Position numbers and translations under genes: made by a program. Of a stretch of DNA of 64,000 nt, positions 3,094 to 18,659 are shown one piece after another. Numbering within the stretch: position 1 is the stretch's first letter; each line of letters opens with the position of its first letter. Origin of the DNA: an uncultured cyanobacterium. Its GTDB lineage: Bacteria; Cyanobacteriota; Cyanobacteriia; PCC-9006; JAAUQQ01. Below the pieces are notes generated by a model. That model was not told the origin of the DNA. It saw only the letters and a program-made list of their open reading frames with translations, and did not search any database. The stretch is from the NCBI GenBank assembly GCA_963718615.1, contig OY970368.1, forward strand, positions 4,640,001 through 4,704,000, given 5' to 3'.

Positions 3094-4164
3094 TCAATCC
3101 CACTCTGCATACTGCGGCGGATTTGCCCCCACCCGCTGAGTCACCTTGGGATATTTGGCCCTTGCCTGAGGTTTGCCAATTTCCAGGGTTTCGATGTGGT
3201 GCCACCAGTCATCGCCAAAATCGAACCAGTAGCCCCAGGATTCACCGGGTTCTAGGTTAAGATCTGCGATCGCTGTCTTTTTCACCTCCCCAGCGGGCTC
3301 ATCCCTGCTGTGATCCATGGCAACGTTCAAAACATAGCGATCGGCATCGGGATCATTCGGCTTCATCCCTTTCACTTGGAACTCATACAGATGCTCTTCC
3401 TCTCGACCAAAGGCTTGAAACAGAGCGTTGTGCAGCTCGGCCAAGGTCTGATCACCCCGAATTTCGACGGTACGACTAATCTCAGGATTCTTTTTCATGA
3501 AGGCTTCCGTAACGGGACCACTGATAATTGACGCCTTGAGTGTGTAGAGAATCTTGGCAGCGGTGCTTTTGGAAGTTGCTTTTTGGGGAGTCGTGTTTTT
3601 CTGAATCGAAACGCCACTATCCAGCAATTGCAAAAACACATCGCTATCGTCTTTGTGCCCTGGAATATAGGGAATCATCCCTTTTCTGTAAGCCTCCACT
3701 TGAGCACCGATGGGGGCATCGCGGATATCCATGATGAAGCCATTGACCGACAACATCCAAGCCATGGGATTGTCATTCATGCGGCTGGGCACGGTCCAGT
3801 TGGGGTCCATCTGATGTATCTTCAACAGATCTCGAACCGTTTTGGATTTCCCCTGGCCGGTGCTGCTGCCCACGCCAAACCATTGGTAGAGTTCTGTGGC
3901 GCTGAGGTGGGGGTCAAAGCTGGAATCGAACAGGAAGTTGACCATGCCGATGGCGTGGCTGATGCCGCAGGCCCAGGTTTTGTCGTGGCCTTTGTCGAGG
4001 GGGGAGGGGCGTTTGCGACAGAGGGCGGCGGTGGCGGAGCGGATCAGTTGGGCGTATTCGTCGTTGAGATGGGCTGCGGCAAAGGCGTCGGTGATGGCGG
4101 TGATGCGATCGAACTTCTCCTGCATGGTCTTGGGCACTTGGTCAGACTTGGAGGAGGCAGCCAT
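3094..4164 (-). CDS. DUF6398 domain plus pRiA4b ORF-3-like domain protein
   Basis: N-terminal LCRKRPSPL...WACGI...VNFLFD; C-terminal TLAELHNALFQAF...HLYEF...YWFDFGDDWWH...PPQY. Confidence 0.8.
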   Translation of the reverse strand: MAASSKSDQVPKTMQEKFDRITAITDAFAAAHLNDEYAQLIRSATAALCRKRPSPLDKGHDKTWACGISHAIGMVNFLFDSSFDPHLSATELYQWFGVGSSTGQGKSKTVRDLLKIHQMDPNWTVPSRMNDNPMAWMLSVNGFIMDIRDAPIGAQVEAYRKGMIPYIPGHKDDSDVFLQLLDSGVSIQKNTTPQKATSKSTAAKILYTLKASIISGPVTEAFMKKNPEISRTVEIRGDQTLAELHNALFQAFGREEEHLYEFQVKGMKPNDPDADRYVLNVAMDHSRDEPAGEVKKTAIADLNLEPGESWGYWFDFGDDWWHHIETLEIGKPQARAKYPKVTQRVGANPPQYAEWD

Positions 4165-4289: not shown

Positions 4290-4691
4290 ATGGCAGATCC
4301 GATGACGGCGGCGGCGATCGCGGGCTTAGCTCTCTCCAAGTTTGCGGAGAGCGGGGCGAGCGAGGCGGCGAAGAAGTTGATTGAGGGTTTGTGGGGGGCG
4401 ATTACAACCCGATTTAAAGGCCGCAAGAAGGCGGAGGAGGCGATCGCCCAACTGGAAGCCAGCCAGGGCAAAGCTCCGGAGGCGGAGGCCAATTTGGTTC
4501 GGGTGTTGGATGCGGAGATGTTTGAGGATGAGGCGTTTGCGGGGCAGGTGCAGCAGTTAGCGCAGCAGATTATCCAGATTCAAAATCAGAATCAAACGCA
4601 GTCTAGCAATACCTTTACGTCGAATGACAATTCGCAGATACGGGCGGTGGGGCAGGTTTATGGGACGGCGAATTTGGGGGATCAGAAATAG
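4290..4691 (+). CDS. Small helical (Bell-like) effector with C-terminal amyloid-like motif
   Basis: 133 aa: hydrophobic N-terminal helix, helical bundle, Q/N-rich linker, and tail NTFTSNDNSQIRAVGQVYGTANLGDQ matching the N-terminus of the NLR at 5554. Confidence 0.75.
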   Translation: MADPMTAAAIAGLALSKFAESGASEAAKKLIEGLWGAITTRFKGRKKAEEAIAQLEASQGKAPEAEANLVRVLDAEMFEDEAFAGQVQQLAQQIIQIQNQNQTQSSNTFTSNDNSQIRAVGQVYGTANLGDQK

Positions 4692-4894
4692 CGGGCTTTG
4701 GGCTTGGCAATTTTGAGAATGGCGATCGCCTGCTCTCGTTTCACGCTCGGAAAATGGTCCAGAAACTCGCTCAGCGGGTCCCCGGCTGCGAGGTAATCGA
4801 GCAGGTTTTTCACCGGCACGCGAGTGCCAACAAAGACAGGAGTTCCGCTTAAAATGCCAGGGTCGCTGTGAATGACTGAAGAAAGAGTAATCAT
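4682..4894 (-). CDS. DUF433-family antitoxin-like protein
   Basis: IHSDPGILSGTPVFVGTRVPV...LDYLAAGDPLSEFLDHFPSV signature. Confidence 0.85.
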   Translation of the reverse strand: MITLSSVIHSDPGILSGTPVFVGTRVPVKNLLDYLAAGDPLSEFLDHFPSVKREQAIAILKIAKPKARYF

Positions 4895-5001
4895 GGCCGC
4901 TGGGCTCATTACAAGGATTTGGGTGTCGAAGCTCGATCGTAGCTGATTTTATGGGGATGGGTTGATGGCTGGGAAACCGACCAATCAGTTTGAATCCTAC
5001 G
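4860..5001 (+). repeat. Copy 1 of ~140-bp direct repeat (DUF433 start + intergenic + NLR 5' start)
   Basis: GTGAATGACTGAAGAAAG...GTAGCTGATTTT...GAAACCGA.CAATCAGTTTGAATCCTA recurs at 5437-5590. Confidence 0.8.
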
Positions 5002-5074
5002 GCCGCTGTTGTGAACGGTCCCAAGCCGTCGGTTATCCTAGATATGAGCCCGTACCATCATTGCTGCTCAAGAT

Positions 5075-5365
5075 ATGACTCCTCAACTCGCAACGGCGAT
5101 CGCAGCCACTCAACCCCTTTCCCTCCTGGAATTGACGCAGCTCATCAGTATCCTCGCCAGCAACCTGCACAAAATCCAGGCGCTGGAGGCAGAGAGTGTC
5201 GCTTTTTGGAGCAATCCATCGTTGGCAGATCTGAGCCAAGCCCAATCCGCACCTCTTTTTCTTGGTCTCCAGACCGTTGCGGGTGATCTTTGGCCGGAGG
5301 AAGAATCCATTGATAACTTCCTCAGTTCTCTGCAAGAACAACGCCAATCGGACGTGGCCGCATGA
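5075..5365 (+). CDS. Hypothetical antitoxin-like small protein
   Basis: 96 aa ending LWPEEESIDNFLSSLQEQRQ, a tail typical of cyanobacterial orphan antitoxin-like proteins. Confidence 0.6.
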   Translation: MTPQLATAIAATQPLSLLELTQLISILASNLHKIQALEAESVAFWSNPSLADLSQAQSAPLFLGLQTVAGDLWPEEESIDNFLSSLQEQRQSDVAA

Positions 5366-5436
5366 CCAAGATGACGATGGAATCAGTAATTTAAGGATTC
5401 TGACCAGGGCCTAGCCAACCGTGCGGATTATCCACA

Positions 5437-5590
5437 GGTCGCGGTGAATGACTGAAGAAAGATTAATCATTGCCGTTAGTCAAATCGCGAGGATTTGGCG
5501 CAGGGGTTTGGGTGTTACAGGTTGGTCGTAGCTGATTTTGTGGGGTAGGGTGAGTGGCTGAGAAACCGAACAATCAGTTTGAATCCTATG
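5437..5590 (+). repeat. Copy 2 of ~140-bp direct repeat
   Basis: Similar to 4860-5001; this copy leads into the real NLR start. Confidence 0.8.
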
Positions 5591-6198
5591 ACCAGTCGCA
5601 GATGCGGGCGGTGGGGGAGGTGCATGGCGATGCTTATTTGGGGGATCAGCACCATCACCATGGCGGCCCAGAAATCACCGTTTCTGGGGTGGGGGACTCG
5701 CCGCCCAATTTCCAGGACTATTGGGTGGAGCGGCGGGTTTATCAAGCTGCTCTGATCGATCGCCTCGACCGTCACCCGGCCACCGAAATCGTCGCAGAGG
5801 GTGGCTTTGGCAAGTCGTCTTTGGCGGCTTGGGCACATCAGCATTTGCAGAATTCGTTTCAAAAACGCATTTGGGTGAGACTGCAGCAGGACAAGCAGCA
5901 GGACAAGAGCTTTGACCGGGTGGCGCGCTGGATTTTGCAGGAAATTGGCTTCCCAAACAAAGACCCTCGGGCGGATGGGGAAACGCTGCTGCGGGAGTTG
6001 TGCTATCGGCTGAATGACCCGAATCGACCGGTGAAGGCGCTGGTGGCGTTGGCGCTGGTGGAGCAGGTGGCGGAGACGCAGGATTGGGAATGGTTTGAGC
6101 GGTTTCTGGAGGCGTGGGCGCGGCAGGGGAAGCTAAGTCGGGTGTTGGTGACAACGCGGCTGTCGGTGTTGGCGGAGGAGCCGATCCTTCTGTTTTGA
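5554..6198 (+). pseudogene. NB-ARC (STAND) receptor, N-terminal half with amyloid-like motif; truncated by island insertion
   Basis: Walker A AEGGFGKSSLA, FQKRIWV and SRVLVTTR. The sequence style changes abruptly at ~6187; the C-terminal half is at 17580. Confidence 0.85.
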
Positions 6199-6229
6199 TT
6201 GTCTAGGACTGTCGGGCAGAAATCAGTAG

Positions 6230-6400
6230 AAATAAGGAAGCTGCAACGCACTGAAGGTGAGCTTCTATGTGGAGACAGAAGCTTGTTCTTGAACTGCGAG
6301 ATGGGTCAAGACGGCGCTCACTTCGGTCACACCCATGTCCTTGGTATGGCGTTTGTTGTGAAACAGGAGGTAGCGCCGAATCCACTGAACGTAAGTTCGT
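6230..6400 (-). pseudogene. intI: Integron integrase N-terminal (SAM-like) fragment
   Basis: Minus strand translates RTYVQWIRRYLLFHNKRHTKDMGVTEVSAVLTHLAVQEQASVST*KLTFSAL, matching the IntI consensus YVxWIRRYILFHNKRHPxDMG..EV..FLTHLAV...STQNQALSAL; contains an internal stop. Confidence 0.85.
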
Positions 6401-6472
6401 AAGTTTGTTATGTAGACACCCGGATTCGATGGTAAAGATTGTGTGATTTTCTACGCCGACTTAAATGAGGTG

Positions 6473-6657
6473 ATTATACTGAGGTACTACGCAATAATAC
6501 TCAAATCGAGGCGTTATCCAGCAACTGTGCCGAGATAACGCTTTGAGAGGGGTAGTTATCATGAAGTCTTGCCTAGTAATATCCAACCAGGGGTGTTACC
6601 CAGGGTGATTGCATTGATAAGAGGCTGGAACTAGGGGTTATAAATCGCTCGTTATAC
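6473..6657 (+). other. Putative attI region of integron 1 with periodic half-site array
   Basis: RTTA starts at 6473, 6513, 6555, 6595 and 6637 (period 40-42 bp); the first four are each closed by TAAN 26-27 bp later. Ends in GTTATAA-N7-GTTATAC and lies directly upstream of the intI fragment. Confidence 0.55.
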
Positions 6658-6825
6658 GGTGCGAGTTCTGAACCTTTCTCGACCAGGTTAGCTGAACGAG
6701 TAGGTGGGCACAATCAATGTGAACAGAGATTCCCGAACCACAAAGGTTTCAGGCTTTCTTGTTTAATACTTATTTGCGCCGACCGACCTACCATCTTCAC
6801 GGAAGCCCCGTAAGGATAGACAATA

Positions 6826-7731
6826 ATGTCAACTGGGAAGCCCTTAGAGATCGATTACTCTCAACCAGATTCAACTTCAACATTTGCCCCACGCCCACGC
6901 ATTCATTCCAGTCAGCAAGCAGGATGGAAAAATATTCATCTGGCACACTATCAAATGCCTGCAATGGAAATCCCTGAAACGATGAGTGTTCAGCACATCA
7001 TCGCCCTGCCGTTTGTTAAATGTCAAACAGTGCAAGAATTAGTTTTTGATGGGAAATGTTATCAAACACAGCATGATCAAAAGGATATGGGATGTATTGC
7101 TATAATTCCTGCTGATGCACCGTTTAGCGCTAAGTGGAATCGAGAGTCCGGCGTGACTCATTGCTATCTTGATCCAACATTTGTCGCCCATGCTGCCTAT
7201 GAGTCGATCAACTTAGAACAAGTTGAGCTGAATTTGGTGATTCAAAAAACTGATCTGCTCGTTTGCCAAATTGTCTTAGCTCTACAACAGGTATTGGAAA
7301 CCGATGCAACGAACAGTTGCTTTTATGCAGAGTCAATGGCTACGGCTCTAGCAGCCCATTGTTTAAGAACATATTCAACTCGCAAGCTCGTTCTACAGAA
7401 GTACGAGGATGGCTTACCGAAGTACAAACTGAAGCAAGCTCTTGAATACATGAACGTTCATCTGAGTGAGAATGTATCATTAGCATCTGTTTCTGAAGAA
7501 GTACAGATCAGCCAATTCCATTTCTGTCGATTGTTTAAGCAGTCAACTGGAATGACTCCCCACGCGTATTTGATTCAGCAACGAGTTGAGCGAGCAAAAC
7601 AACTTCTCAAAAGGAAAGAGGGCAGCATGCTCGATATTGCTATTGAGTGTGGCTTTGCTAATCCGAGCCACTTTGCCAAGCATTTTCGGAAACATACAGG
7701 CATTTCGCCGAAGCAGTTTCGGATGTTGTAG
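6826..7731 (+). CDS. AraC-family transcriptional regulator
   Basis: C-terminal double HTH: SQFHFCRLFKQSTGMTPHAY...IAIECGFANPSHFAKHFRKHTGISPKQFR. Confidence 0.95.
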   Translation: MSTGKPLEIDYSQPDSTSTFAPRPRIHSSQQAGWKNIHLAHYQMPAMEIPETMSVQHIIALPFVKCQTVQELVFDGKCYQTQHDQKDMGCIAIIPADAPFSAKWNRESGVTHCYLDPTFVAHAAYESINLEQVELNLVIQKTDLLVCQIVLALQQVLETDATNSCFYAESMATALAAHCLRTYSTRKLVLQKYEDGLPKYKLKQALEYMNVHLSENVSLASVSEEVQISQFHFCRLFKQSTGMTPHAYLIQQRVERAKQLLKRKEGSMLDIAIECGFANPSHFAKHFRKHTGISPKQFRML

Positions 7732-7757
7732 CAAGAATGTGTCGCGATCGCAAGAAT
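7731..7757 (+). promoter_or_regulatory. Putative AraC operator (GCAAGAAT direct repeat)
   Basis: GCAAGAAT at 7731 and 7750, immediately after araC and upstream of the next gene. Confidence 0.5.
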
Positions 7758-7833
7758 ATATTCGCCTTAAGAAGTAAAGCATATTAAAGTTATCTAAGTT
7801 ACGTAATAACACTTGTGAACAACTTGTAAGGAG

Positions 7834-8160
7834 ATGTACTTCATGTCTATTAGTAATAGTGTTGTTGATGGAATGATGCCAGAGTTTGATCCTACAAATC
7901 CAGATGCCGACTACGGTGATGTAGTTCGCGCTGGTGGTGACGCAATTCTGAACGCTGTAACAGGTGGTGCTGCAGGGAATGCCTTTTCACAAGGTGCTCA
8001 AGGAATCGAGGATTTGAATGAGTTCACCGATAATGCTTTTACGGCTGAAAGTATTGTAGCGATGACCGAGGATGTTGCACCCGTAGTTGAACAGTTTAGT
8101 GAACAGGTATCAGAAGGTGCAAGCGATTTGGTGGAAAACGTGTTTGGTGGACTTTTTTGA
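7834..8160 (+). CDS. Small acidic hypothetical protein
   Basis: 108-aa ORF preceded by the RBS AAGGAG; very D/E-rich. Confidence 0.65.
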   Translation: MYFMSISNSVVDGMMPEFDPTNPDADYGDVVRAGGDAILNAVTGGAAGNAFSQGAQGIEDLNEFTDNAFTAESIVAMTEDVAPVVEQFSEQVSEGASDLVENVFGGLF

Positions 8161-8183
8161 TTCTAAAAAGGGAAAAAGAGCAG

Positions 8184-8291
8184 CTAGTACTCTGGGGCTG
8201 AAATATCCAGACTATCTCTTCTCGTGCAGACCATACTGAGTCAGAAGCCAGAGAAAGAACTGGTCAAATGACTTCCGCCACCGAGTACTAG
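8184..8291. mobile_element. MITE-like element
   Basis: Imperfect terminal inverted repeats CTAGTACTCTGGGGCTGAA / TTCCGCCACCGAGTACTAG; noncoding. Confidence 0.5.
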
Positions 8292-8334
8292 TCGCTTAGA
8301 CACTCATCCTATATTAAATTCTTAGGTTATTAAA

Positions 8335-9414
8335 ATGCTTGAGAAATATACTCCTATGGCACAGGATTGCTTTTCAACGCCAGCATGTAACGAGGAAAAT
8401 GCTTCACTGATGACTGATAGCTCTGAGGCAGACGGACAACTGGTTGGCAATACTCCTGTAAATTCACAACCAATTACTTCTCAAGAAGGTTCAACTCAGC
8501 CTGATCATCCTTTCCAGGCTAGGAAAGCACTTCAAGGGTTTAGCGGAAATTTGGTAAAAGGAGTTTGGCAGCTTAGTGGTGACGTTGCTGGGAAAACAAC
8601 AGAAATTGGTAGTAAAGTTGCTCAATCTGCTACTAAATTAGGGCAAGAAGCAGTTCAATCCGTGACAGAACTTAGGCGAGAAGCAATTCAATCTGTGACA
8701 GGATTTACTCAAGAAGTCGCTGAATCCACAGCCAAACTAGGGCAAGAAGCAACTCAATCAGCACTTTCTCAAGAGGCAGTCCAAGATGCTCTGCTACTGG
8801 TTGGAGGAAATACTCACGCTTCACAAGTTGCGAAGGAAGCTTCAGTTGAGGCGTATGTAAAGCAAGTCAATTTGAGCAGAGTCCAAAAGTTTGTTGTTGC
8901 TCTGAAAGAGAAGATTTCGACAAAAAATCTGGAAGAACTGTCCCAACAAATTGTGGTTCAGCAAACTCTCCGAATTACCGGAAATTCTGCCGCACTGAGT
9001 CTCATCCCAGGAAAATTAGTCGAGGCAATGGGCTTTGATCAGGCTTCGCTCACTCTGGCACAAGCTGAAATCATTTACCAAATTGCTGATGTATATGGGC
9101 TGGAGTTAAAGACTCCATCACGCAGAGAGGAAGCCTTCGCAATTTTTGATCGGACTTTCAGAATGGCTAGACAAATGAAGATGTCCATGAATCTGGGAGT
9201 TGTTCCAACGCTTCCGATCGTTGGTGGGCTTTTAAGTGCAATCCCAATTTTGGGAGGTGCTTTAAATGTAGGGAGTGATGCGTTTTTAATCTCTCTAACT
9301 GGAGATACAGCCTGCTATCTTTACAAAACAATTGCAGAGGAGAAGGTGGCTGGGGAAACTCTCAAGAGTTTTAAGCAGGAAACGCAAACACGGTATAAGC
9401 AACGTTTGTGGTAG
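8335..9414 (+). CDS. Hypothetical protein with 11-aa amphipathic repeats and EcsC-like C-terminal region
   Basis: Repeats QEAVQSVTELR/REAIQSVTGFT/QEVAESTAKLG; QAEIIYQIADVYG; Gly-rich hydrophobic LPIVGG...IPILGG. Confidence 0.6.
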   Translation: MLEKYTPMAQDCFSTPACNEENASLMTDSSEADGQLVGNTPVNSQPITSQEGSTQPDHPFQARKALQGFSGNLVKGVWQLSGDVAGKTTEIGSKVAQSATKLGQEAVQSVTELRREAIQSVTGFTQEVAESTAKLGQEATQSALSQEAVQDALLLVGGNTHASQVAKEASVEAYVKQVNLSRVQKFVVALKEKISTKNLEELSQQIVVQQTLRITGNSAALSLIPGKLVEAMGFDQASLTLAQAEIIYQIADVYGLELKTPSRREEAFAIFDRTFRMARQMKMSMNLGVVPTLPIVGGLLSAIPILGGALNVGSDAFLISLTGDTACYLYKTIAEEKVAGETLKSFKQETQTRYKQRLW

Positions 9415-9441
9415 TAAACCTAATTTTTTTGTTCAGGAGCT

Positions 9442-9831
9442 ATGGATATGGACTGGTTAGAAAGTTTGTTTGAGTGGCTTAGCGATGTCTTGGATGCTAA
9501 TGCTGATGGCGCAGTCACCTTTAATGATATTACAGATGGAATCAGCGATGTAGTAGAAACAGTGACTGACTTTGCCGATCAAGATAATTCTGGGGTAATC
9601 AATTTTAATGATGCATCCAGTTTGGTTCTTAATTTCATCGATAAAAACGGATCTAGACAAATTGATTCAGAGGACTTTCAGCAGTTATTATTTGGTGTTT
9701 TTGACAAAAATGGTGATGGTCAGTTTACTTCAATTGATGTAACACTACGAAAACTTGCCGCTGAGGTAGGAGAGAATTTTGGACCAGCAGCTAGATTGGC
9801 TTTTCTCAACACTGCGAAAAATTTACTTTAA
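9442..9831 (+). CDS. EF-hand calcium-binding protein
   Basis: Four DxNxDG-type loops: DANADGAVTFND, DQDNSGVINFND, DKNGSRQIDSED, DKNGDGQFTSID. Confidence 0.8.
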   Translation: MDMDWLESLFEWLSDVLDANADGAVTFNDITDGISDVVETVTDFADQDNSGVINFNDASSLVLNFIDKNGSRQIDSEDFQQLLFGVFDKNGDGQFTSIDVTLRKLAAEVGENFGPAARLAFLNTAKNLL

Positions 9832-9904
9832 CTTAACCTGAGCAAGTTAGATTTTGCTCGTTGAAAAGTAAATTGCAAATAAAGTGGGATGTTTCGGAAG
9901 CACG

Positions 9905-9992
9905 ATCTAGCAACGTCCATTCACACCGATCGTCGAAAAATGATCGGTTTAATGCAGAGTCTATCTGCAGCGGGTGATGGGCACCGTTAGAC
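9905..9992 (+). other. attC integron recombination site
   Basis: R'' ATCTAGC (degenerate RYYYAAC); L'' GTCCATTCACACCG pairs with L' CGGGTGATGGGC with extrahelical bases; R' GTTAGAC. Confidence 0.7.
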
Positions 9993-10064
9993 CACTGAGT
10001 TACCTGTTGGGGTGTAGCTAGAACGTTATTGCAAGTTGTAACTTCAGTCTTCAAATAGGAGTGA

Positions 10065-10814
10065 ATGCTTATGCTACCTCTCGTAGTGAATTTGAATTTG
10101 AGCGGCAGTGTAGGACAGGGTGGAAGAAACCATTCTCAAGATGTTCTCACTGTCAAGAATCGATTGGCTGATTTGGGTTATCCAGTTACCAGAGATGCGA
10201 TCGTCAACTCTGAAACTATTGCCATCATTAAACTATTTCAATCGATTATTAAAGGAGAGACAATAATTGTTGGAGATGGCAGAATTGACCTAAATGGTCC
10301 TACACTCAAATTTTTACAGGCGACAAATGCGCCTCAATGGTTAGAAATGCCAAAGGGAGATGCTTCTGAAGGTTTTATAAATCATGACGAACGTCAGAGA
10401 GATAATCATGATTTCGGTACAAATTGGGTGGTTGAAACCATTCAGGCTGCGGCTCAAATCTATCTGACCACTCATCTTTCTAGCCATCCAACAGCAGCCT
10501 TGATTCAAACTAATGACTTAAGTAAGCCAAAGGGAGGTTCTACACCAGTCCATGCAACTCATCAGACTGGTTTGTCATGTGATCTTCGACTACCTCGTAA
10601 AGATGGCCAAGCAGGTGGCATTGTATTCAGTGATTCTCGGTTTGATCGGGATGCAATGAGAGCAATGCTTCAAGCTATACGCAATCAAAACAAGTACAAA
10701 ATCAAGCGTATTTTCTTCAACGATCTTACATTGATTGCTGAAGGTCTCTGTAAAAATGCACCGGGTCATGACAATCATGTGCATCTTGATATCATTCCCC
10801 CTCAACCACAGTAG
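10065..10814 (+). CDS. Peptidoglycan-binding domain plus MepA-like (LAS) murein endopeptidase
   Basis: SVGQGGRN...VKNRLADLGY PG-binding region; NDLS..KGG...HATHQTGLSCD and GHDNHVH zinc motifs. Confidence 0.8.
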   Translation: MLMLPLVVNLNLSGSVGQGGRNHSQDVLTVKNRLADLGYPVTRDAIVNSETIAIIKLFQSIIKGETIIVGDGRIDLNGPTLKFLQATNAPQWLEMPKGDASEGFINHDERQRDNHDFGTNWVVETIQAAAQIYLTTHLSSHPTAALIQTNDLSKPKGGSTPVHATHQTGLSCDLRLPRKDGQAGGIVFSDSRFDRDAMRAMLQAIRNQNKYKIKRIFFNDLTLIAEGLCKNAPGHDNHVHLDIIPPQPQ

Positions 10815-10914
10815 ATGCTTATGGGAATAGGCTTTTAGAGATTTTAGCTGATTTACAACAGCATAGTGGCAACCTTTAATTTGTTCTGTAATTACTCTGA
10901 TAGGAGTCAAATCA

Positions 10915-12588
10915 ATGGCACTTCTTTCTCTTGGTTCATCCGGTACTGAAGTTCGTAAGTTACAGGAAAAACTCATTAAATTAGGTTTTTTGAGTTCAGC
11001 AGCTTCAGGGAGTTTTGATGCAACGACAGAATCCGCAGTTAAAGATTTTCAAACTCAGCATCCGTGGTTACTGACGGATGGTGTTGTCGGGCCGATGACG
11101 TTGGGTGAGATTGGTGATTCGATTTCAGTGCTTGATGGACAAGTTGCCTTGAAAGCATTTGCTGCGGGTTCCGCTTCTCTAGATATGGCATCCCTCAGGG
11201 CGAACTCCCTATTAAGTTTGGCAATTCAGAGACGGTTACGAGGGTTAGGTTTATACCCAGGTGGAAAATTGATTGATGGTGATTTCGGACAAAATAGTCA
11301 AGCAGCACTCGAGAATTTTTGTGATAAAGTCGCCCCTCCAGTTACTTCGCCCTTGCAACTGACTCCTTCAATCGCAGATAAGCTATTAACCACTCAGCAA
11401 ATTTCCTCAGTCTTGGATAATGTGCAAAATACTAGTGTTATTGCAACAATATTCAAAGACTTTCAGAAGGCGGTTGGAGCCAATGATGCCAAACTGGGAT
11501 TCCTAGACATGGGGGCACAACAATCTCCATTTAAGGAAACGATCTATCGTGGTAAAGATTTTTTAGCGGCAACAAAGTCAGCAGGAATCCAGAGTAGCTC
11601 GCCTGGGATACTCAGCTTTTCTAGTTATCCGAATATTGGAACTGCACCAACGATTGCCGCTAGCAGTTTAAATTTCTTAGGGTCTGACATTACAGAAGCC
11701 TGTTTGTGTGTGGGGCATTTCGATGGGGGGCAGCTAACCACAAGCTGGTTGGGCAAAGAAGCACTTGATCTGGTTGAGTGTTGGAGCGCCAGTAAAATCA
11801 TCCCCATGCTGAATGTTCTGTGTAAAGTGGGAGATCGAGTTCCCAGCGATCCGAGCGACTTGATTCTGAAGAATACAGGCAGTACGGGACGACAATTTGA
11901 ACTTTCTAATGCACTAGTTGATATCTGTTCCTATAGAGTGGATGTTTCTCACTCCAATGCTTTGTCTGCAACTTTGAATTCTTTTGAAAGTAATCGACCA
12001 AGATGGATCAAAAATCAAACTGGTAATGCCAAGGCAATTCAGTTTGGTGGAAAATATGGGATTACGGCAACAATTGGAGTGCCAGAAATTCGTGATCGTT
12101 CCAGCAACAGCCAAATCTTAAGTTTTCAATCGACTGCTACTGGAGGGAATTTAATTTCTGCTTATGACTTAACAAGGTTTATTTCCTTGGTCGGGTGGCA
12201 CGGACTACTATCTAATACGCAGAAATTACCTGGTATTTCAGATCGAGGTCTCGATCAAGCCGTCATTGCGTTCGGTACCGATACTGCACGATATGTGGAT
12301 ACAGCAATTTCAACACTTGGTCTTGAAAATGTGGTGGATTCCCTTGTTGTTCTTTCTAAATTGGGCTTTGGCCCCTCCCCGACCCGTGGTGTAACAGAGT
12401 TGGTTTATACCGCATTTGCTCAATTTGTTGACAAACAAGATCCAATAAATCAAAAGCTCAGAAGTTTTTCTTTAACATTGCGTAGCAGTAAACCTTCAGT
12501 AAACGGTGTAGGGATTAAATTAGATACGGCGATAGCTACCGCTGTTACAGAAATTGTTCGGCGGATTGTAACCGAAGATTTTTCTTAA
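10915..12588 (+). CDS. Two PG-binding domains plus beta-lactamase/DD-peptidase-like SxxK domain
   Basis: LSLGSSGTEVRKLQEKL...DGVVGPMT; DGDFGQNS; WSASK and SKLG motifs. Confidence 0.65.
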   Translation: MALLSLGSSGTEVRKLQEKLIKLGFLSSAASGSFDATTESAVKDFQTQHPWLLTDGVVGPMTLGEIGDSISVLDGQVALKAFAAGSASLDMASLRANSLLSLAIQRRLRGLGLYPGGKLIDGDFGQNSQAALENFCDKVAPPVTSPLQLTPSIADKLLTTQQISSVLDNVQNTSVIATIFKDFQKAVGANDAKLGFLDMGAQQSPFKETIYRGKDFLAATKSAGIQSSSPGILSFSSYPNIGTAPTIAASSLNFLGSDITEACLCVGHFDGGQLTTSWLGKEALDLVECWSASKIIPMLNVLCKVGDRVPSDPSDLILKNTGSTGRQFELSNALVDICSYRVDVSHSNALSATLNSFESNRPRWIKNQTGNAKAIQFGGKYGITATIGVPEIRDRSSNSQILSFQSTATGGNLISAYDLTRFISLVGWHGLLSNTQKLPGISDRGLDQAVIAFGTDTARYVDTAISTLGLENVVDSLVVLSKLGFGPSPTRGVTELVYTAFAQFVDKQDPINQKLRSFSLTLRSSKPSVNGVGIKLDTAIATAVTEIVRRIVTEDFS

Positions 12589-12615
12589 TTAAAGATAACT
12601 GGAGGATGTAAGGCG

Positions 12616-13542
12616 ATGAATTTTAGAGTGATTTCGGCAGGGCTTAATATCCGTTTATCTGGAGTTGTGGAACCCAACAACATCATTACAGTATTACCTC
12701 AGAATCAAATCGTTACGCGAATTGGTAATGAATCTGACAGTGATAGGTGGTGGCAAGTGAGAACTACTTTAATGGGGCGTATTATTGAGGGATTCGTGAA
12801 CAAATCCTTCCTAGCTAGCCTTCTACAAACAACTGAAAAAGTTTTGTGGGTTGTGAACTATCCTAGCTTAGAGTGGTTTATAGACCGTGCAACCTTTATT
12901 AAAGCAACAGCTGTTGCAATCCGAACAGATAACGATATGGAAACTGCCATTTCTGCTTTTCATGCTAAAGGCATTAAGGTCTACGGTTGGCGCTGGCCTT
13001 CTGCACAGCGAGATCGTGCTTTAAAGGAAGCGAACAGAGTAGTTGAACTATTGAGTAGAGGCTTAGATGGATATTATGTAGATCCTGAAGGTGAAGAAGG
13101 AAAGCATTATGATTGGGATCAACCTGATTTAGAGACAACAGCTGAAGAGTTTTGCCAGAAAATTACGATAGCTTCACCTGGTAAACCATTTGGGACAACA
13201 TCCCACTTTAGAGGAGAAAAAGTATTTAGCAAATTGCCCTGGAAGGTCTTCATAAAATACTCTAATGTATTACTACCACAAGCTTACTGGCGGGTTAAGC
13301 AAGGAACAGTCAGTGGCGGCAATCCGCAGAAAAACTATCTTACAGCGATTGATGAATGGCAATCGATTGGTGGATCTAGAAATTTAATAGTCCCAATGGC
13401 TGGAGAGCTTGAACATGTCAATGGAGCAGAAATTGAGAGTTATGCAGAAGTCGCGAAAGCGCAAGGAGTAAGTAGTCTACATTTCTATACAGCAACAAAG
13501 ACTACGAAATCGGAAGTTTGGAAGGCAGTCGCAAACTTGTAA
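12616..13542 (+). CDS. SH3b domain plus putative TIM-barrel glycoside hydrolase
   Basis: N-terminal LNIR...WWQV...EGFV; GIKVYGW, DGYYVDPE and LLPQAYW motifs. Confidence 0.6.
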   Translation: MNFRVISAGLNIRLSGVVEPNNIITVLPQNQIVTRIGNESDSDRWWQVRTTLMGRIIEGFVNKSFLASLLQTTEKVLWVVNYPSLEWFIDRATFIKATAVAIRTDNDMETAISAFHAKGIKVYGWRWPSAQRDRALKEANRVVELLSRGLDGYYVDPEGEEGKHYDWDQPDLETTAEEFCQKITIASPGKPFGTTSHFRGEKVFSKLPWKVFIKYSNVLLPQAYWRVKQGTVSGGNPQKNYLTAIDEWQSIGGSRNLIVPMAGELEHVNGAEIESYAEVAKAQGVSSLHFYTATKTTKSEVWKAVANL

Positions 13543-13598
13543 ATTACATAGTAACAACGGTCTTAATTCATCTATAGAAAATCAAGAGGTATTCAGGA

Positions 13599-14369
13599 AT
13601 GGTCACTTTAAAAGTTAAGCCAGAAAGTTTAAATCTGCGCAAGGCTCCAGAAATTAAGGATGGAAATATTATTGCCTCACTACCAATGGCACAGGAAGTG
13701 GAAACATTGACAAATAATCCTTCTGATCGTTTCTGGCAAGTCAAAACCCAAGTTAATGGATCGACGCTAGAAGGTTTTGTTAGTGCGGCTTTTTTGAGAG
13801 TACCTGTTAGTCTTGCTAAAGAGAAACTTATTAGTTCATCTGTAAAAGAGTGGCTAAGATTTTCTCGTGGCAATAAGCTGGAATTTGAGGATCCTCAATA
13901 CAAGTACGTTGGAGAATACTGGACTAGCATTGGTTTGAATTTCGATGGTAAAGATCGAGACCAACCTTGGTCAGCAGCATTTATTTCCTTTGTTGCTCGT
14001 GCTGCTGGTTATAGTGAATTTAAATTTGCACCTGCTCACTCAACCTATGTCTATGATGCAGTGGACAAAAGGCAGAGGAATATCACAACAGCACCTTTTT
14101 GGGCTTTTGATGTTAATGATCATAAACCTCAGCTAGGTGATCTAGTTTGCCGAACACGTGATGGGGTTAGTATTGCTTCGATAGCTAATTTACCCAGAGG
14201 AGGCTTTAAGAGTCACTGTGACATTATTGTCGAAATTCAAGATTCAGAAGTACGAACATTAGGCGGTAATGTTAGTCAATCTGTTTCAATCACGTCATAT
14301 CCATTGGATGATGATGGTTTCTTGAGAAAAGTGAATAATGTATATGGAATTTTGAAAAATAATCTATAA
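13599..14369 (+). CDS. SH3b domain plus DUF2272 (CHAP-like) protein
   Basis: PWSAAFISF, PQLGDLVC, SHCDIIV and GGNVSQSV motifs. Confidence 0.8.
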   Translation: MVTLKVKPESLNLRKAPEIKDGNIIASLPMAQEVETLTNNPSDRFWQVKTQVNGSTLEGFVSAAFLRVPVSLAKEKLISSSVKEWLRFSRGNKLEFEDPQYKYVGEYWTSIGLNFDGKDRDQPWSAAFISFVARAAGYSEFKFAPAHSTYVYDAVDKRQRNITTAPFWAFDVNDHKPQLGDLVCRTRDGVSIASIANLPRGGFKSHCDIIVEIQDSEVRTLGGNVSQSVSITSYPLDDDGFLRKVNNVYGILKNNL

Positions 14370-14945
14370 ACGATCTGGATCAAAAACATGGAACTTTATG
14401 TAGTTCAAGCGACCAGCCTTAATGTTCGTTCATTGCCTAAAGTAGAGGAGAATAATAAAATTGCATCTATTCCTCAAAATCATGTGGTCTCCAAACTTAA
14501 CACCACTGAAGGAGATGCTTGGTGGAAAATTTTAACTATCAAAGATGGGCAACCCTTGGAAGGTTATGTCGCAAGTCGATTTCTAGAAGCAGCACCTAAG
14601 CGAATTCGAGCGATTGGCTGGTTTAAGGAACAGTTTCGAGATCAGATAAATGCTGCCATTTCAGGCACTCCCTTTAGCTTGGATCTATTAGTTGCGATCG
14701 CGATGCAAGAAACGTATTACATTTGGGGAAATGTGTATAGCACGAGCTCGCTTAATGAGGTACTGAAACTCTGTACTGGAGATACTCTAGATGCTCCCAA
14801 TCGATCTGCATTTCCAAAAAATAAAGTAGAATTATTAGCTCGCGAAAAGGGAGATGAGATGTTTGCGATCGCTCGTGAAGCCTTGGAAGCAGTTGCTAAC
14901 TTTGTTCCTTCGTTTAAGCGTGTAGCAGATTCTTCTCCAAATAAG

Positions 14946-15850
14946 GGTAGTGCTTTTATGTAAAGGATAAAGAAAAACAGAGTGAAGCAGTTGTAGTCAA
15001 TAGGAGCTGAAGATAAAGGGAAAGAAGGGAAAACTGTTGTAGAAACGAGGAGCGGTTGTAGGAGAAAGGAAAAGATGACCATAGAACGTACTTGCCCGAC
15101 CTGTGGCTCCCACGACATTTCCAAGAACGGCACAACCCGCCGAGGCAAACAAAACTACAAATGCCGAGACTGCAACCGACAGTTTGTCGAAGACCCCCAG
15201 TGGAAGCCGAAAGACAAAGACACCCAGAGTTTGATAGACCTGCTGCTGCTAGAGAAAATTCCCCTGGCAGGGATTGCTAGAGCAACGGGCGTTTCGAGTA
15301 GCTGGCTGCAAGATTACGTCAATGAACACTATAAGGCGGTGCCCCAAAAGGCAGAGGTACTGCCCAAAGCGAAAGGAAGGCTGAGGGTGCAAATGGATGA
15401 GCTATGGTCCTTTGTGGACCATAAGGGCAACAAGCAATGGGTCTGGATAGCTTTGGATGCGAACACCCGAGAGGTGATTGGCTGCCACATCGGCGACCGC
15501 TCCCGAGCATCAGCCGTGGCGTTATGGCAATCCTTACCGTCGGTGTATCGGCAATGCGCCACGGTCTATACGGATTTTTGGGAAGCCTACGAGAGTGTGA
15601 TTCCAGCGCAGCGTCATCGTGCCGTCAGCAAAGACAGTGGGTTGACGAGCTACATCGAAAGGTTCAACAACACCCTGAGGCAGAGGGTTTCGCGCCTAGT
15701 GAGAAAAACCTTGTCTTTCTCCAAGAAGCTGGACAACCATATCGGTGCAATTTGGAATTTCATTCATGAGTACAACCGTCTAATCAGAGAAAAGATGCTG
15801 AACAACCAGCCCAATGATATTTTCTCCATCCTTTACTAAAGGGGACTACC
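14946..15850 (+). mobile_element. IS1-family insertion sequence
   Basis: TIRs GGTAGTGCTTTTATGTAAAGGA / TCCTTTACTAAAGGGGACTACC; 8-bp TSD CAAATAAG (14938-14945, 15851-15858). Confidence 0.92.
15075..15839 (+). CDS. IS1-family transposase (fused InsA-InsB)
   Basis: Zn ribbon CPTC...CRDC; DELWSFV, YTDFW and IERFNNTLRQR. Confidence 0.95.
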   Translation: MTIERTCPTCGSHDISKNGTTRRGKQNYKCRDCNRQFVEDPQWKPKDKDTQSLIDLLLLEKIPLAGIARATGVSSSWLQDYVNEHYKAVPQKAEVLPKAKGRLRVQMDELWSFVDHKGNKQWVWIALDANTREVIGCHIGDRSRASAVALWQSLPSVYRQCATVYTDFWEAYESVIPAQRHRAVSKDSGLTSYIERFNNTLRQRVSRLVRKTLSFSKKLDNHIGAIWNFIHEYNRLIREKMLNNQPNDIFSILY

Positions 15851-16234
15851 CAAATAAGTTCTGCCGAGGTTATGGCATCTTTCAACTCGACTTGCAGTTC
15901 TTCAAGAACAACCCTGATTATTTTCTTCAAAAGAAGTGGTACAGCTTTGATGAGTGCCTCGCTCAGTGTGTTAACGAACTAAAAGCAGCCATGAGACGCG
16001 CTTATGGTAGCGGTAAAACGGCATTAACCGATGAAGAAAAAGTCTATGCCGCGATCGCCTACAACCAAGGGAGTGTAGACTTCTCCAAAAAGTTTAAGCA
16101 GGGTTTTCGAGATCAAAGTGGCAAGTATTATGGTGAGTACATTTGGGAATATCTACAGCTTGCTAAGTCGGTACCTTAAGTCTTGATGTGTATAAAGTAA
16201 CCCATGAGCTATCGCGGTCCAATCGGGATAGGGA

Positions 16235-16456
16235 GTGCGATTCGTTGCAGACGAATAACGGTGCAAGCCTGTAAATAACTCTGCCAGCTTGGCTTCCAAA
16301 GATGAAGCACTCCAAAGAGCTGAACTGTCCTAATGATGAGGGTGAAAGCCCCTTCCATCAAACTCGGATGTGACTCCTGATCTGCCCACGATGACCCGAC
16401 TCGGAATTCGGGAAGTCGAAGCTGGGAGCAGGGCGCAATCAGACACTCATAGCAAG
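16235..16456 (+). mobile_element. Group II intron 5' (domain I) fragment, copy 1
   Basis: Begins GTGCGATTCGTT and contains GGTGCAAGCC and GAGGGTGAAAGCCCC; closely similar to 26554-26775; no RT ORF or domain V. Confidence 0.55.
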
Positions 16457-16620
16457 GGACGGAGAAGAACGATGCCACGCTAGAGGAACGAGGAGAGCAA
16501 CTGCACCAGACAACCGGAGTGCTGGTTGGGCGTACAACAGTAGACCGTATGGTGAAGAAGCTAGGATATACCGTCAAAAAAACACTACACGCGACAGAGA
16601 AAGCGAGTGAACGAGTCTAA
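16457..16620 (+). pseudogene. IS630-family transposase fragment
   Basis: EKNDATLEE...TVDRMVKKLGYTVKK, then TLHATEKASERV across an A-run. Confidence 0.75.
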
Positions 16621-16882
16621 TTCTTCTAATTTCACTCTATTAAATGCTGCCTCTAACGAAACATGGACTGGCAGTTGTAATTGGAGAGGTATTGGTGTTC
16701 AAATAAATGGTAGCTCAAGCATAACATTCGTGATTTGGTTATTTTTAGAGGTGCTTCTACTATTTCGCTGAAAGCTCATAACCCCCCCAAAATCTTTGTG
16801 CAATTCTGCATCACCCTCTTTTGCCCTGTTAAGAAAGAGTGATGCTATCCTTAGTGATAAAAGCCTTCGAGGATAGAATACA

Positions 16883-17092
16883 ATGAAAAGTCGTAGCTTC
16901 ACAGTCATTCTTCACAAAGAAGATGACATGTACATTGCTGAATGTCCAGAAGTTGGGACGGTTGATCAGGGGGAAACGATCGAGCAGGCGATCGCGGGTT
17001 TGAAAGAGGCAACGCGGCTCTACTTAGAAGAATTTCCCCTCCCTGAAACATCTCCTAGACTTGTAACCAGCATTGAGGTCAGCTATGCCTAA
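16883..17092 (+). CDS. hicB: HicB-family antitoxin
   Basis: YIAECPEVGTVDQGETIEQAIAGLKEATRLYLE. Confidence 0.9.
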   Translation: MKSRSFTVILHKEDDMYIAECPEVGTVDQGETIEQAIAGLKEATRLYLEEFPLPETSPRLVTSIEVSYA

Positions 17093-17312
17093 GATGCCAC
17101 GGGTCTCAAGCAGAGAAGCGATTCAGGCACTTGAGCGATTAGGGTTCGAGCAAGTTCGTCAAACAGGCAGTCATATTGTGATGAAGAAAGAAACTAAAGA
17201 GGGCAAAATTGGCTGCGTTGTGCCTATGCATCGGGAATTGAAGGTTGGTACGTTGAGCGGCGTTCTCAAGCAAGCGCAAGTCACAGTCGAAGAGTTCATT
17301 GAGAGTCTATGA
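17085..17312 (+). CDS. hicA: HicA-family mRNA interferase toxin
   Basis: ALERLGFEQVRQTGSH...VVPMHRELKVGTLSGVLKQA; overlaps the hicB stop. Confidence 0.9.
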   Translation: MPKMPRVSSREAIQALERLGFEQVRQTGSHIVMKKETKEGKIGCVVPMHRELKVGTLSGVLKQAQVTVEEFIESL

Positions 17313-17579
17313 GGTCTTATCCCTGAACCTTCATCCAGAGGTTCCGACTTGAAAGCAATCCTTAAACCCAGGGCTCATTTTTAGGAAACCCACTGAAGGG
17401 GTTCAGTCGCGCTGATCTGCTCAAAGACCCTGGCTGGGAGCTGGCTTGAGTTCCTTTCGTGAAGGGTTTAGATTAGCCTGGGGTTTTCAACCTCGGGCGA
17501 TCGTGAGGTGCAATTCGTCAATCTTGATGCCGTCTGACTGATGTCGAACTCACGTTAACTCAGAAATCGGCCCATACAA

Positions 17580-18659
17580 TTGGGGGCGGGGTTGTGGGGC
17601 AAGGGGTTGCTGTTGGCGGAGGGGGAGCGGTTTTCGTTGCACCCGTTGGTGAAGGAGTTGGTGGTGGCACGGTTGCCGCAGCAATTGCAGCAGCAGGCCC
17701 ATGAACGGGCGATTGACTACTACAGCGCTCATTTCCAAGCCTGGGATGGAACGATCGAGAGCTGCCAAGCGGAGCTAGAGGGCTTTTATCATGCCTGGGA
17801 GCTGGGGCAGTATGGGCGGGCCAAGGGGATGCTCGATCGCTGCGTTAATCAGCTCGATCGCGCAGGCTACTGGCGGGAGCTGCGAGGGCTGTATGAGCAA
17901 CTCACCACGACCTGGCAGCCTGAGGACGACGACGCGACCCAAAACCTCGGCTGGGCTTGGACAAGGTTGGGGAATTTGCAGCGGCGGTTGGGGGACGTGG
18001 CGCAATCCATCGACAGCCACCACCAAGCCCAGGCCCTGTTCGATCGCCTAGACTTCGCCCCAGGCAAAGCCGCCGCCCTCAGCGGTCTCGGCCTTGCGTA
18101 CGACTCCCTCGGGGACTATCAACGGGCGATCGACTTCCATTCTCAGAACCGGGAACTGGCGGAGGCAATCGGCGATAAACGTGGCATTGCGAATTCCCTC
18201 GGCAATCTCGGCAATGCGTACTACTCCCTCGGGGACTATCAACGGGCGATCGACCTCTATTCTCAGCACCGGGAACTGGCCGAGGCGATCGGCGATCGAA
18301 ACGGAGCAGCGAGGTCTTACTTCAACCTCGCCCAAGCCCAAGCCAAACTCGACGACCACTGGGCCGCCAAACAAAACCTCGAACAAGCCAAAGCCATCTT
18401 CACCGCCCTCAAACTCGATCACATGATCGAGAAATGCGACCAAGCCATCCGCGAACGCAACCAAATCATCGCCGCCACCCCTCGCCGCGTCCCCACCCTC
18501 GGCGAACCCGCCGAACCCGCCCTCCCCGACTAGTGGGAAAAATCCCTCCCCGCCAACGAAAATAAACCACGCCCCTCCTCCTCCAGCAAAACTCCAGTGT
18601 GGTTCTGGTTCGTCGTCGGCATTGGGATTGTAGCTTTGGTGTGGTGGCTAAAGCGCTAG
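17580..18659 (+). pseudogene. NLR C-terminal half: winged helix, TPR array, membrane anchor behind an in-frame TAG
   Basis: FSLHPLVKE (WHD); 40-aa TPRs GNLGNAYYSLGDYQRAID; after TAG at 18531 the frame continues WEKSLP...VWFWFVVGIGIVALVWWLKR* to 18659. Confidence 0.8.

Follow-up and report, generated by a model that had tools for sequence, protein, structure and literature searches.

A probable relic of a Bell/BASS-type amyloid-signaling gene pair, with an intact effector and a disrupted receptor, in an uncultured cyanobacterium

In a stretch of 64,000 nucleotides from an uncultured cyanobacterium (assembly GCA_963718615.1, contig OY970368.1, positions 4,640,001-4,704,000), which we call the window and whose coordinates are used except where a genome or locus coordinate is indicated, we have analyzed a gene for a small helical protein together with the remains of a nearby gene for a NOD-like receptor (NLR). 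The two gene products carry the same motif of about 26 residues, the former at its C-terminus and the latter at its N-terminus. We consider it likely that they represent a gene pair of the Bell-domain/BASS type that acts in amyloid signaling, which survives here only as an intact effector accompanied by a disrupted receptor. An island has cut the receptor gene after codon 214, about 125 codons of its NOD module have been lost, a conserved Asp has been replaced by Ala and a nonsense codon has appeared near the 3' end, and thus the sensing and oligomerizing parts of the receptor are parted from the motif. Since the genome contains no second receptor with this motif (class A in the following), the effector is most likely an orphan that can no longer be triggered, the module inactive and the pair a relic.

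The shared terminal motif

The motif occupies residues 107-132 of the effector (4608..4685, plus strand) and residues 7-32 of the NLR fragment (5572..5649, plus strand), and a residue-by-residue count gives 17 identities among the 26 positions, which reproduces both the coordinates and the count reported in an earlier interpretation of this DNA by a model that saw only its letters and reading frames (hereafter, the sequence-only reading). BLASTP of the 133-residue effector against the 214-residue NLR fragment finds similarity in one local alignment (17/30 identities, E 3e-9) and nowhere else, in agreement with the claim of the same reading that the two proteins are otherwise unrelated. The Smith-Waterman score of the motif alignment is 84, compared to a mean of 20.9 for shuffled sequences (standard deviation 3.8, maximum 39; z 16.7), and none of 1000 shuffles reaches it. 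In a six-frame tblastn search of the 6.1-Mb genome, each of the two 30-residue motif segments is the other's sole match below E 0.2 (E 7.6e-6), the next-best matches being found at E 1.8 and 0.26, respectively. A likeness due to chance or low complexity is ruled out by the shuffles together with this genome-wide search. When the whole effector protein is used as a query against its own genome, the start of the NLR is among seven matches (E 0.0035). At the DNA level, the two copies of the motif are 75% identical over 79 nucleotides (repeat family D2).

Neither a further copy of the class-A motif nor a second class-A receptor was found in the 6.1-Mb genome by the protein search and by six-frame tblastn, and a second class-A receptor acting in trans can therefore be ruled out as the trigger of the effector. 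A database search for proteins longer than 233 residues that contain the effector region 94-133 yielded no word-sharing candidate, which we regard as weak evidence only. The motif, taken as 27 residues, contains four Asn, three Gln, three Gly, three Thr, two Val, one Lys, one Leu and no Pro, and three or four of its Gly residues are conserved.

Conservation of the motif pair and motif classes in relatives

Loci from species genomes and metagenomes were scanned with a hidden Markov model of the helical domain, and the last 45 residues of each effector were compared with the first 75 residues of downstream open reading frames (ORFs) on the same strand, using 500 shuffles as a control. Among the 39 rows that lie outside the window, five lack an ORF downstream because the contig ends or the copy is broken, and five pairs of rows give identical results (probably the same sequence taken twice), leaving 29 distinct loci. 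The effector and the NLR share a significant motif match (0/500 shuffles) in 17 of these 29.

The paired motif, on whose presence in homologous loci the sequence-only reading had staked its proposal, is indeed found there: class A is kept on both genes in all five of the other class-A loci (L016, L018, L022, L037 and L038; z 12.6-16.2, 0/500 shuffles in each), and in each case the downstream ORF is of the NB-ARC type and begins with the class-A motif. Its pattern can be written as F-x-S-x-D-x-S-Q-M-R-A-V-G-x-V-x-G-x-A-x-L-G-D. Invariant residues are F109, R118, G121, V123, G125, T126, A127, N128, G130, D131 and K133 in 23 class-A effectors, and F9, S15, R18, G21, A27, G30 and D31 in 13 class-A NLR N-termini. 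The conserved positions common to both sides are F, S, D, S, Q, M, R, A, V, G, V, G, A, L, G and D, and the side-specific ones are the fourth (T/E), the 16th (Q/E-K) and the 22nd (N/Y).

Among 5.8 billion proteins, 60 homologues of the effector (74-208 residues) were found at E ≤ 1e-3. Of these, 31 carry class A, as do 8 of the 24 homologues of the NLR; the remaining homologues fall into at least four other motif classes, which likewise recur in both partners. The all-against-all matrix of motif scores is organized in blocks, in which class-A effectors reach 59-91 with class-A NLRs and no more than 42 with any others, and the GRDQ-type motif class shows a similar block. Across the series, the Bell-like effectors are 57-86% identical and the partner NLRs 42-66% identical, and the motif classes are exchanged on the effector and the NLR together among close relatives. 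The gap between the two genes in most relatives is 0-56 bp.

The effector and its family

The effector gene (4290..4691, plus strand) is an intact ORF of 133 codons that encodes a Bell-like helical domain (residues 1 to about 103) followed by the C-terminal motif tail. The AlphaFold2 model, calculated from an alignment of 47 rows, contains five helices (residues 7-15, 25-41, 46-57, 63-79 and 81-107) with a mean predicted local distance difference test score (pLDDT) of 72.4, and residues 104-133, including the motif, are predicted to be disordered (pLDDT below 50). The N-terminus reads M-A-D-P-M-T and continues into a hydrophobic run, the mean hydropathy of the protein peaking at residues 1-17. 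In the family as a whole, the N-terminal consensus M-x-(E/D)-P-I-T leads into a hydrophobic stretch (M-x-x-P-I-T-A-A-x-I-V-G-L-A), and a loose form of this pattern fits 132 of 208 family members. The five predicted helices with the motif tail, the N-terminus composed of an acidic residue, Pro and a hydrophobic stretch, and the location of family members immediately ahead of NB-ARC/TPR genes that carry the matching motif all agree with the Bell/BASS kind of architecture put forward in the sequence-only reading.

As to a HeLo/Bell-like fold, which the sequence-only reading proposed to look for, five helices are predicted, and the fold searches with the model return only generic helical matches. 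Foldseek against the PDB gives nothing at E ≤ 0.001 (best E 1.6), a wide VIA-align search reaches a best Z of 5.2, and a profile search of the PDB sequences reaches a best E of 0.18, with an unrelated protein. Pfam HeLo (PF14479) does not match the effector at E ≤ 1; one homologue (P0022) shows a sub-threshold match to it (E 0.031, 14.5 bits, cut-off 23.2). Precomputed HetE-N (PF20701) labels on 4 of the 60 homologues could not be confirmed with hmmscan at E ≤ 1, nor was this domain found in the effector's own genome, and we have dropped this candidate. Pfam, NCBIfam and PADLOC assign the effector to no family, and none of these three collections contains a Bell model.

The family is large. 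A profile search of 1.84 billion representative sequences finds 502 clusters at E ≤ 1e-3, mostly of 120-160 residues, and this number drops to 181 at 1e-10 and to 10 at 1e-30. Among the ten longest of 150 listed representatives, eight have the effector domain fused N-terminally to NB-ARC (P0215), TPR (P0199, P0164), TIR (P0128), CHAT with TRADD-N and TIR (P0188), CHAT (P0230) or GUN4 (P0136, P0182), and the other two have no Pfam match. In a sample of the phylum, the family is matched in 26 of 301 genomes and 24 of 134 genera, and in none of the 123 genomes of one large taxonomic family.

At least three further members are encoded in the genome under study. One of them (L002, G000:C1:4382609-4384513) is separated by 11 bp from a downstream NB-ARC/TPR gene with which it shares a different motif (13/23 identities, 0/1000 shuffles), and the reading frame of this NLR stays open for at least 480 residues, to the limit of the retrieved sequence. 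Another (L004, G000:C1:2249889-2250242) lies upstream of a P-loop NTPase with which it shares no significant motif, and a third (L003/L005, G000:C1:5665202-5665541) is broken by a TGA stop and has no NLR behind it. The presence of several pairs with unrelated motifs in one genome would fit a scenario in which motif identity insulates parallel pathways from each other.

The disrupted receptor gene

The 5' fragment of the NLR gene (5554..6198, plus strand) is an ORF with a GTG start that encodes 214 residues, namely the motif, a linker, the P-loop (GGFGKSS, residues 83-89) and the first half of the NB-ARC module, and that terminates in a stop codon at the junction with the island. Its match to Pfam NB-ARC (PF00931) scores 29.5 bits (gathering cut-off 23.5) and covers only positions 9-142 of the 248-position profile. 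The description of this neighbor as an NB-ARC/TPR protein is thus correct for the NB-ARC part; the ORF contains no TPR repeats, which are located 11.4 kb downstream.

Full-length homologues of the NLR have 436-995 residues, and 22 of 24 contain NB-ARC, nearly all of them with TPR repeats in addition. In tblastn searches of the genome, the first ~205 residues of two full-length homologues fall at 5578-6192, residues 331-682 of P0061 fall at 17601-18656 on the same strand (50% identity, E 4e-103), and residues 339-591 of P0064 match the same downstream region with 75% identity (E 7e-117). The intervening residues of the homologues (approximately 206-330, about 125 codons) have no counterpart in the genome, even at E 10 and word size 2. 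Homology to full-length NLRs ends at approximately 6190 and restarts at approximately 17590. The 3' fragment (17580..18533, plus strand) is an ORF of 317 codons that encodes the last part of the NOD module and, after it, the TPR repeats (Pfam TPR_12, E 1.7e-24). It is closed by a premature in-frame stop at 18531-18533, beyond which 41 codons retain homology to the hydrophobic tail at the C-termini of P0061, P0063 and P0064 before the original stop is reached (18531..18659, plus strand); the tblastn match passes through the premature stop to 18656.

Two further changes are found within the 5' fragment. A conserved Asp, present in 12 of 12 other aligned sequences, is replaced by Ala at residue 167; this Asp ends an h-h-h-h-D stretch about 80 residues past the P-loop, and from its position it may be regarded as the Walker B residue. 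In addition, a 12-nucleotide tandem duplication at 5884-5907 doubles Q-Q-D-K in frame (residues 111-118) and is absent from 12 of 12 aligned homologues. The simplest reading of these data is that one NLR gene was split by an insertion accompanied by a deletion, and has been decaying since. The intact NLR-templated module that the sequence-only reading envisaged at this locus is not what we find.

Four sequencing runs yielded no contig that bridges the island, where the uncovered parts prove nothing, and no RNA sequencing run containing the stretch was found.

Several receptors of the series (P0061, P0063, P0064, P0066 and P0072), as well as the segment 18534-18656 of the window, end in a short hydrophobic stretch flanked by tryptophans. 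To judge from its sequence, this tail looks like a C-terminal membrane anchor, and a membrane-anchored NLR, if this is true, would place the nucleating motif near the target of the effector.

The space between effector and receptor

The effector does not stand next to the NLR, as had been assumed, for the two are 862 bp apart and are separated by a DUF433 gene and a duplicated segment. The DUF433 gene (4682..4909, minus strand; 75 residues; Pfam PF04255, E 7.8e-18) is convergent with the effector gene and overlaps its 3' end by 10 bp. Its presence is no accident of the genome under study, for two other loci (L022:4541-4732 and L038:1488-1679) have a homologue (76-78% identity) at the corresponding position between effector and NLR, with the orientation conserved. 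Another homologue is located just upstream of the effector in L029 (3666-3869). A literature search found no paper that joins DUF433, an NLR and amyloid.

The first copy of the duplicated segment (4861..5004, plus strand) comprises the 5' end of the DUF433 gene, intergenic DNA and the first ~16 codons of the NLR, and the remnant NLR start breaks off after six residues of the motif. The second copy (5437..5593, plus strand) comprises a 5' remnant of DUF433, intergenic DNA and the start of the NLR fragment. The corresponding repeats are D1 (4912-5004 versus 5501-5593, 81% identity) and D3 (4861-4922 versus 5437-5498, 82% identity), with the copies 576-589 bp apart, and the motif gives a weak tblastn match to the remnant at 4974-5033 (E 0.93). 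Between the copies lies an ORF of 96 codons (5075..5365, plus strand) that has no Pfam or NCBIfam match and is present once in the genome. A metagenome contig of a relative (run X2, 861 nucleotides) joins 4860 directly to 5437, skipping 576 bp, and thus displays the order effector-DUF433-NLR without the duplication; we take it as a hint only, as it is a single contig with less than 95% likeness.

Proposed mechanism and alternative explanations

By analogy with the BASS1/BASS3, Bab/Agp and HET-S/NWD2 systems, we propose that in the intact relatives of this locus the NB-ARC/TPR receptor would sense a cue via its TPR domain and oligomerize via its NB-ARC module, whereby the N-terminal receptor motifs of about 26 residues would gather and fold into a cross-beta nucleus. 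The nucleus would then template the matching C-terminal motif of the effector, and the hydrophobic helix 1 at the N-terminus of the effector would be freed to damage the membrane. The cell would die as a result, probably by abortive infection or by some other regulated route. It is from this analogy that we infer the formation and templating of amyloid as well as the attack on the membrane and the role in defense.

It is improbable, in our opinion, that the module still functions in this organism, with the 214-residue fragment (motif and P-loop) nucleating the effector, perhaps aided by a separately expressed TPR fragment. Such a possibility is suggested by the fact that the effector, the 214-residue and the 317-residue TPR ORFs are all open and that the motif residues invariant in the relatives are all retained in the window. 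However, the ~125 codons of the NOD module are absent, the Walker-B-type Asp found in 12 of 12 other aligned sequences is Ala, a nonsense codon precedes the C-terminal tail, and the two NLR fragments lie 11.4 kb apart with foreign genes between them. Moreover, the 862-bp gap between the effector and the fragment, which contains a gene on the opposite strand, contrasts with the gap of at most 56 bp in most relatives.

A second alternative, to which we likewise give little credence, is that the motif is a specific docking tag that does not template amyloid, and acts e.g. by one-to-one beta-strand pairing or by recruitment to a common partner. The concerted exchange of the motifs shows that the two ends must match and does not show by which mode they interact, and AlphaFold2 gives the motif tail no structure (pLDDT below 50). 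Nonetheless, the length of the motif (~26 residues), its position on both proteins and its composition agree with the description of BASS motifs, as far as the available text of that study goes (Dyrka et al. 2020, 10.1101/2020.01.06.895854), and related motifs form fibrils and prions according to the accessible parts of two studies (10.1101/2020.01.06.895854; 10.1101/2024.11.07.622273). As to the notion that the likeness of the motifs is a functionless by-product of local DNA duplication, for which one might cite the duplication over 576-589 bp in this rearranged region and the 75% DNA identity of the motifs, we reject it as very improbable because the pair is conserved in relatives, namely in 5 of 5 other class-A loci, which belong to different organisms, despite an effector identity of 57-86%, with invariant residues that coincide on both sides and with other motif classes paired in the same way.

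Several observations weigh against our preferred interpretation, i.e. a Bell/BASS-type pair of which an intact effector and a disrupted receptor are left. The amyloid nature of the class-A motif is argued by analogy. No curated family matches the effector, so its kinship to the founding Bell domain of Saccharothrix (ONI86675.1) is putative, and the fold searches give it no tie to HeLo, MLKL or Babybell. The motif match between the effector and the NLR was not significant in 12 of the 29 relatives' loci by the crude test applied. With respect to the decay of the module, the intact effector ORF could mean that the protein continues to be used in some way, and the two NLR fragments could derive from two paralogous NLR genes. 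Finally, the break in the NLR gene is seen in one assembly, and no sequencing run that contains this stretch well was found, the best having 0.20 of the sampled words.

A broader scenario can be offered tentatively, and we regard it as possible, though on balance doubtful. According to it, class A may be an amyloid-signaling family outside BASS1-11 that is confined to a group of Leptolyngbya-like cyanobacteria, in one sub-lineage of which the unit consists of the effector, DUF433 on the opposite strand and the NLR, with DUF433 as an unnoticed regulator or safeguard; the window would then present an intact amyloid-triggered killer after the loss of its trigger.

The island and the neighboring genes

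The island that interrupts the NLR gene (6199..17579) is about 11.4 kb long and of low guanine-plus-cytosine (GC) content, with values of 0.37-0.46 over 6501-15000 compared to 0.52-0.60 in the flanks. About 70 bp from its left junction lies a stop-bounded fragment of 44 codons (6268..6399, minus strand) that corresponds to the N-terminal SAM-like domain of a tyrosine integrase (Phage_int_SAM_4, E 5.5e-10, profile positions 21-63 of 85). It is followed by genes for an AraC-type regulator (6826-7731) and an EF-hand protein (9442-9831), and by genes for M74-like (10065-10814), PG_binding_1 (10915-12588), DUF2272 plus SH3 (13599-14369) and SH3 (14388-14963) proteins, the last four of which form a cell-wall-related cluster. 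ORFs that belong to no family are found at 7834-8160, 8335-9414 and 12616-13542, and a HicA toxin gene with a small upstream ORF is found at 16883-17312.

An IS1-family transposase gene is located at 15075-15839. The insertion sequence (IS) appears to have split a gene, the two parts of which are now the ORFs 14388-14963 and 15814-16179, and in one contig of a relative (run X1) the segment 13865-14936 adjoins 15850-16219 without the IS. In all four runs, the region 15022-16023 is sequenced many times more deeply than its flanks, which is the behavior of a repeat.

On the other side of the pair, the gene directly upstream of the effector (3094-4164, minus strand) encodes a protein with DUF6398 and PRiA4_ORF3 (plasmid pRiA4b ORF-3-like) domains (E 5.7e-43 and 1.7e-21, respectively).

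Comparison with known systems

The arrangement described here has a fungal counterpart in the HET-S/NWD2 system of Podospora anserina, in which the N-terminal motif of an NLR templates the C-terminal prion-forming motif of an adjacent membrane-targeting helical effector. The likeness consists in the pairing of an NLR N-terminal motif with the C-terminal motif of the neighboring effector. The fungal system differs in that it comprises a HeLo domain, a HRAM motif of two repeats and a NACHT-WD receptor, whereas the effector in the window has no Pfam HeLo match at E ≤ 1.

Bacterial counterparts are the Bell/BASS pairs described from filamentous bacteria. According to the available text of the study that describes them, the Bell domain is a bundle of five helices and about 100 residues in which helix 1 is hydrophobic and position 2-3 is occupied by an acidic residue, the BASS motifs are rich in Q, N, G and V and poor in K, P and L, BASS1 and BASS3 form prions and fibrils with the NLR side converting the Bell side, and the distance between the Bell and NLR genes is at most 10 bp in 57% of the pairs (Dyrka et al. 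2020, bioRxiv 10.1101/2020.01.06.895854). Judged against this description, so far as it is accessible, the pair in the window resembles the Bell/BASS systems in its helical effector of about 130 residues, whose N-terminal helix is hydrophobic and which has an acidic residue at position 2-3, and in the C-terminal motif of about 25 residues, rich in G, N and Q, that a collinear NB-ARC/TPR protein likewise carries at its N-terminus. The same parts of the description also provide for an occurrence in cyanobacteria of the filamentous type, several motif families per lineage and all-in-one fused forms, and the composition of the class-A motif fits the Q/N/G/V-rich, K/P/L-poor profile. The differences are that the receptor in the window is a disrupted pseudogene, with intact NB-ARC/TPR partners found in orthologous loci, and that the genes are 862 bp apart with DUF433 between them. 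Class A is likened to BASS by length, position and composition, as described in the accessible text, and not by the logos or profiles of BASS1-11. Motif consensus strings are given neither in the available text of Dyrka et al. 2020 nor in that of PMC8086366, and in PMC12261475 we found no mention of cyanobacteria, Bell, BASS11/BASS12 or a new motif family. A full-text literature search returned neither the class-A motif strings nor a relevant paper on BASS12 or BASS13.

The Bab/Agp system of E. coli, which uses BASS11, acts in abortive infection, and a 'MEPIS' region is common to Bell, Hell, Bab and Avast2, as stated in the accessible part of the report on this system (Ibarlosa et al. 2024, bioRxiv 10.1101/2024.11.07.622273). 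The N-terminus of the effector in the window and of its family is of this type. To the extent that this part allows a comparison, the likeness lies in the small helical cell-death effector with a conserved hydrophobic helix 1, in the C-terminal amyloid motif common to the N-terminus of the adjacent sensor, and in Gly residues as strand breakers. The 'Babybell' domain differs in being shorter (~80 residues), and no match in sequence or fold to a solved structure was found with the model of the effector in the window.

The templating of amyloid in a membrane-attacking effector by an immune receptor has recently been recognized as a signaling principle common to animals, fungi and bacteria. The locus analyzed here is of a kind already known and leaves this picture unchanged, to which it makes modest additions, i.e. 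the series of concerted motif exchanges, the presence of DUF433 inside the pair in three loci and the state of an orphaned effector. The window illustrates how such a module decays, with an island in the receptor and the effector left intact. Together with its relatives, the locus forms a compact natural series with at least five motif classes, and because these are exchanged in concert on both partners, the series is well suited for testing the specificity and orthogonality of the motifs.

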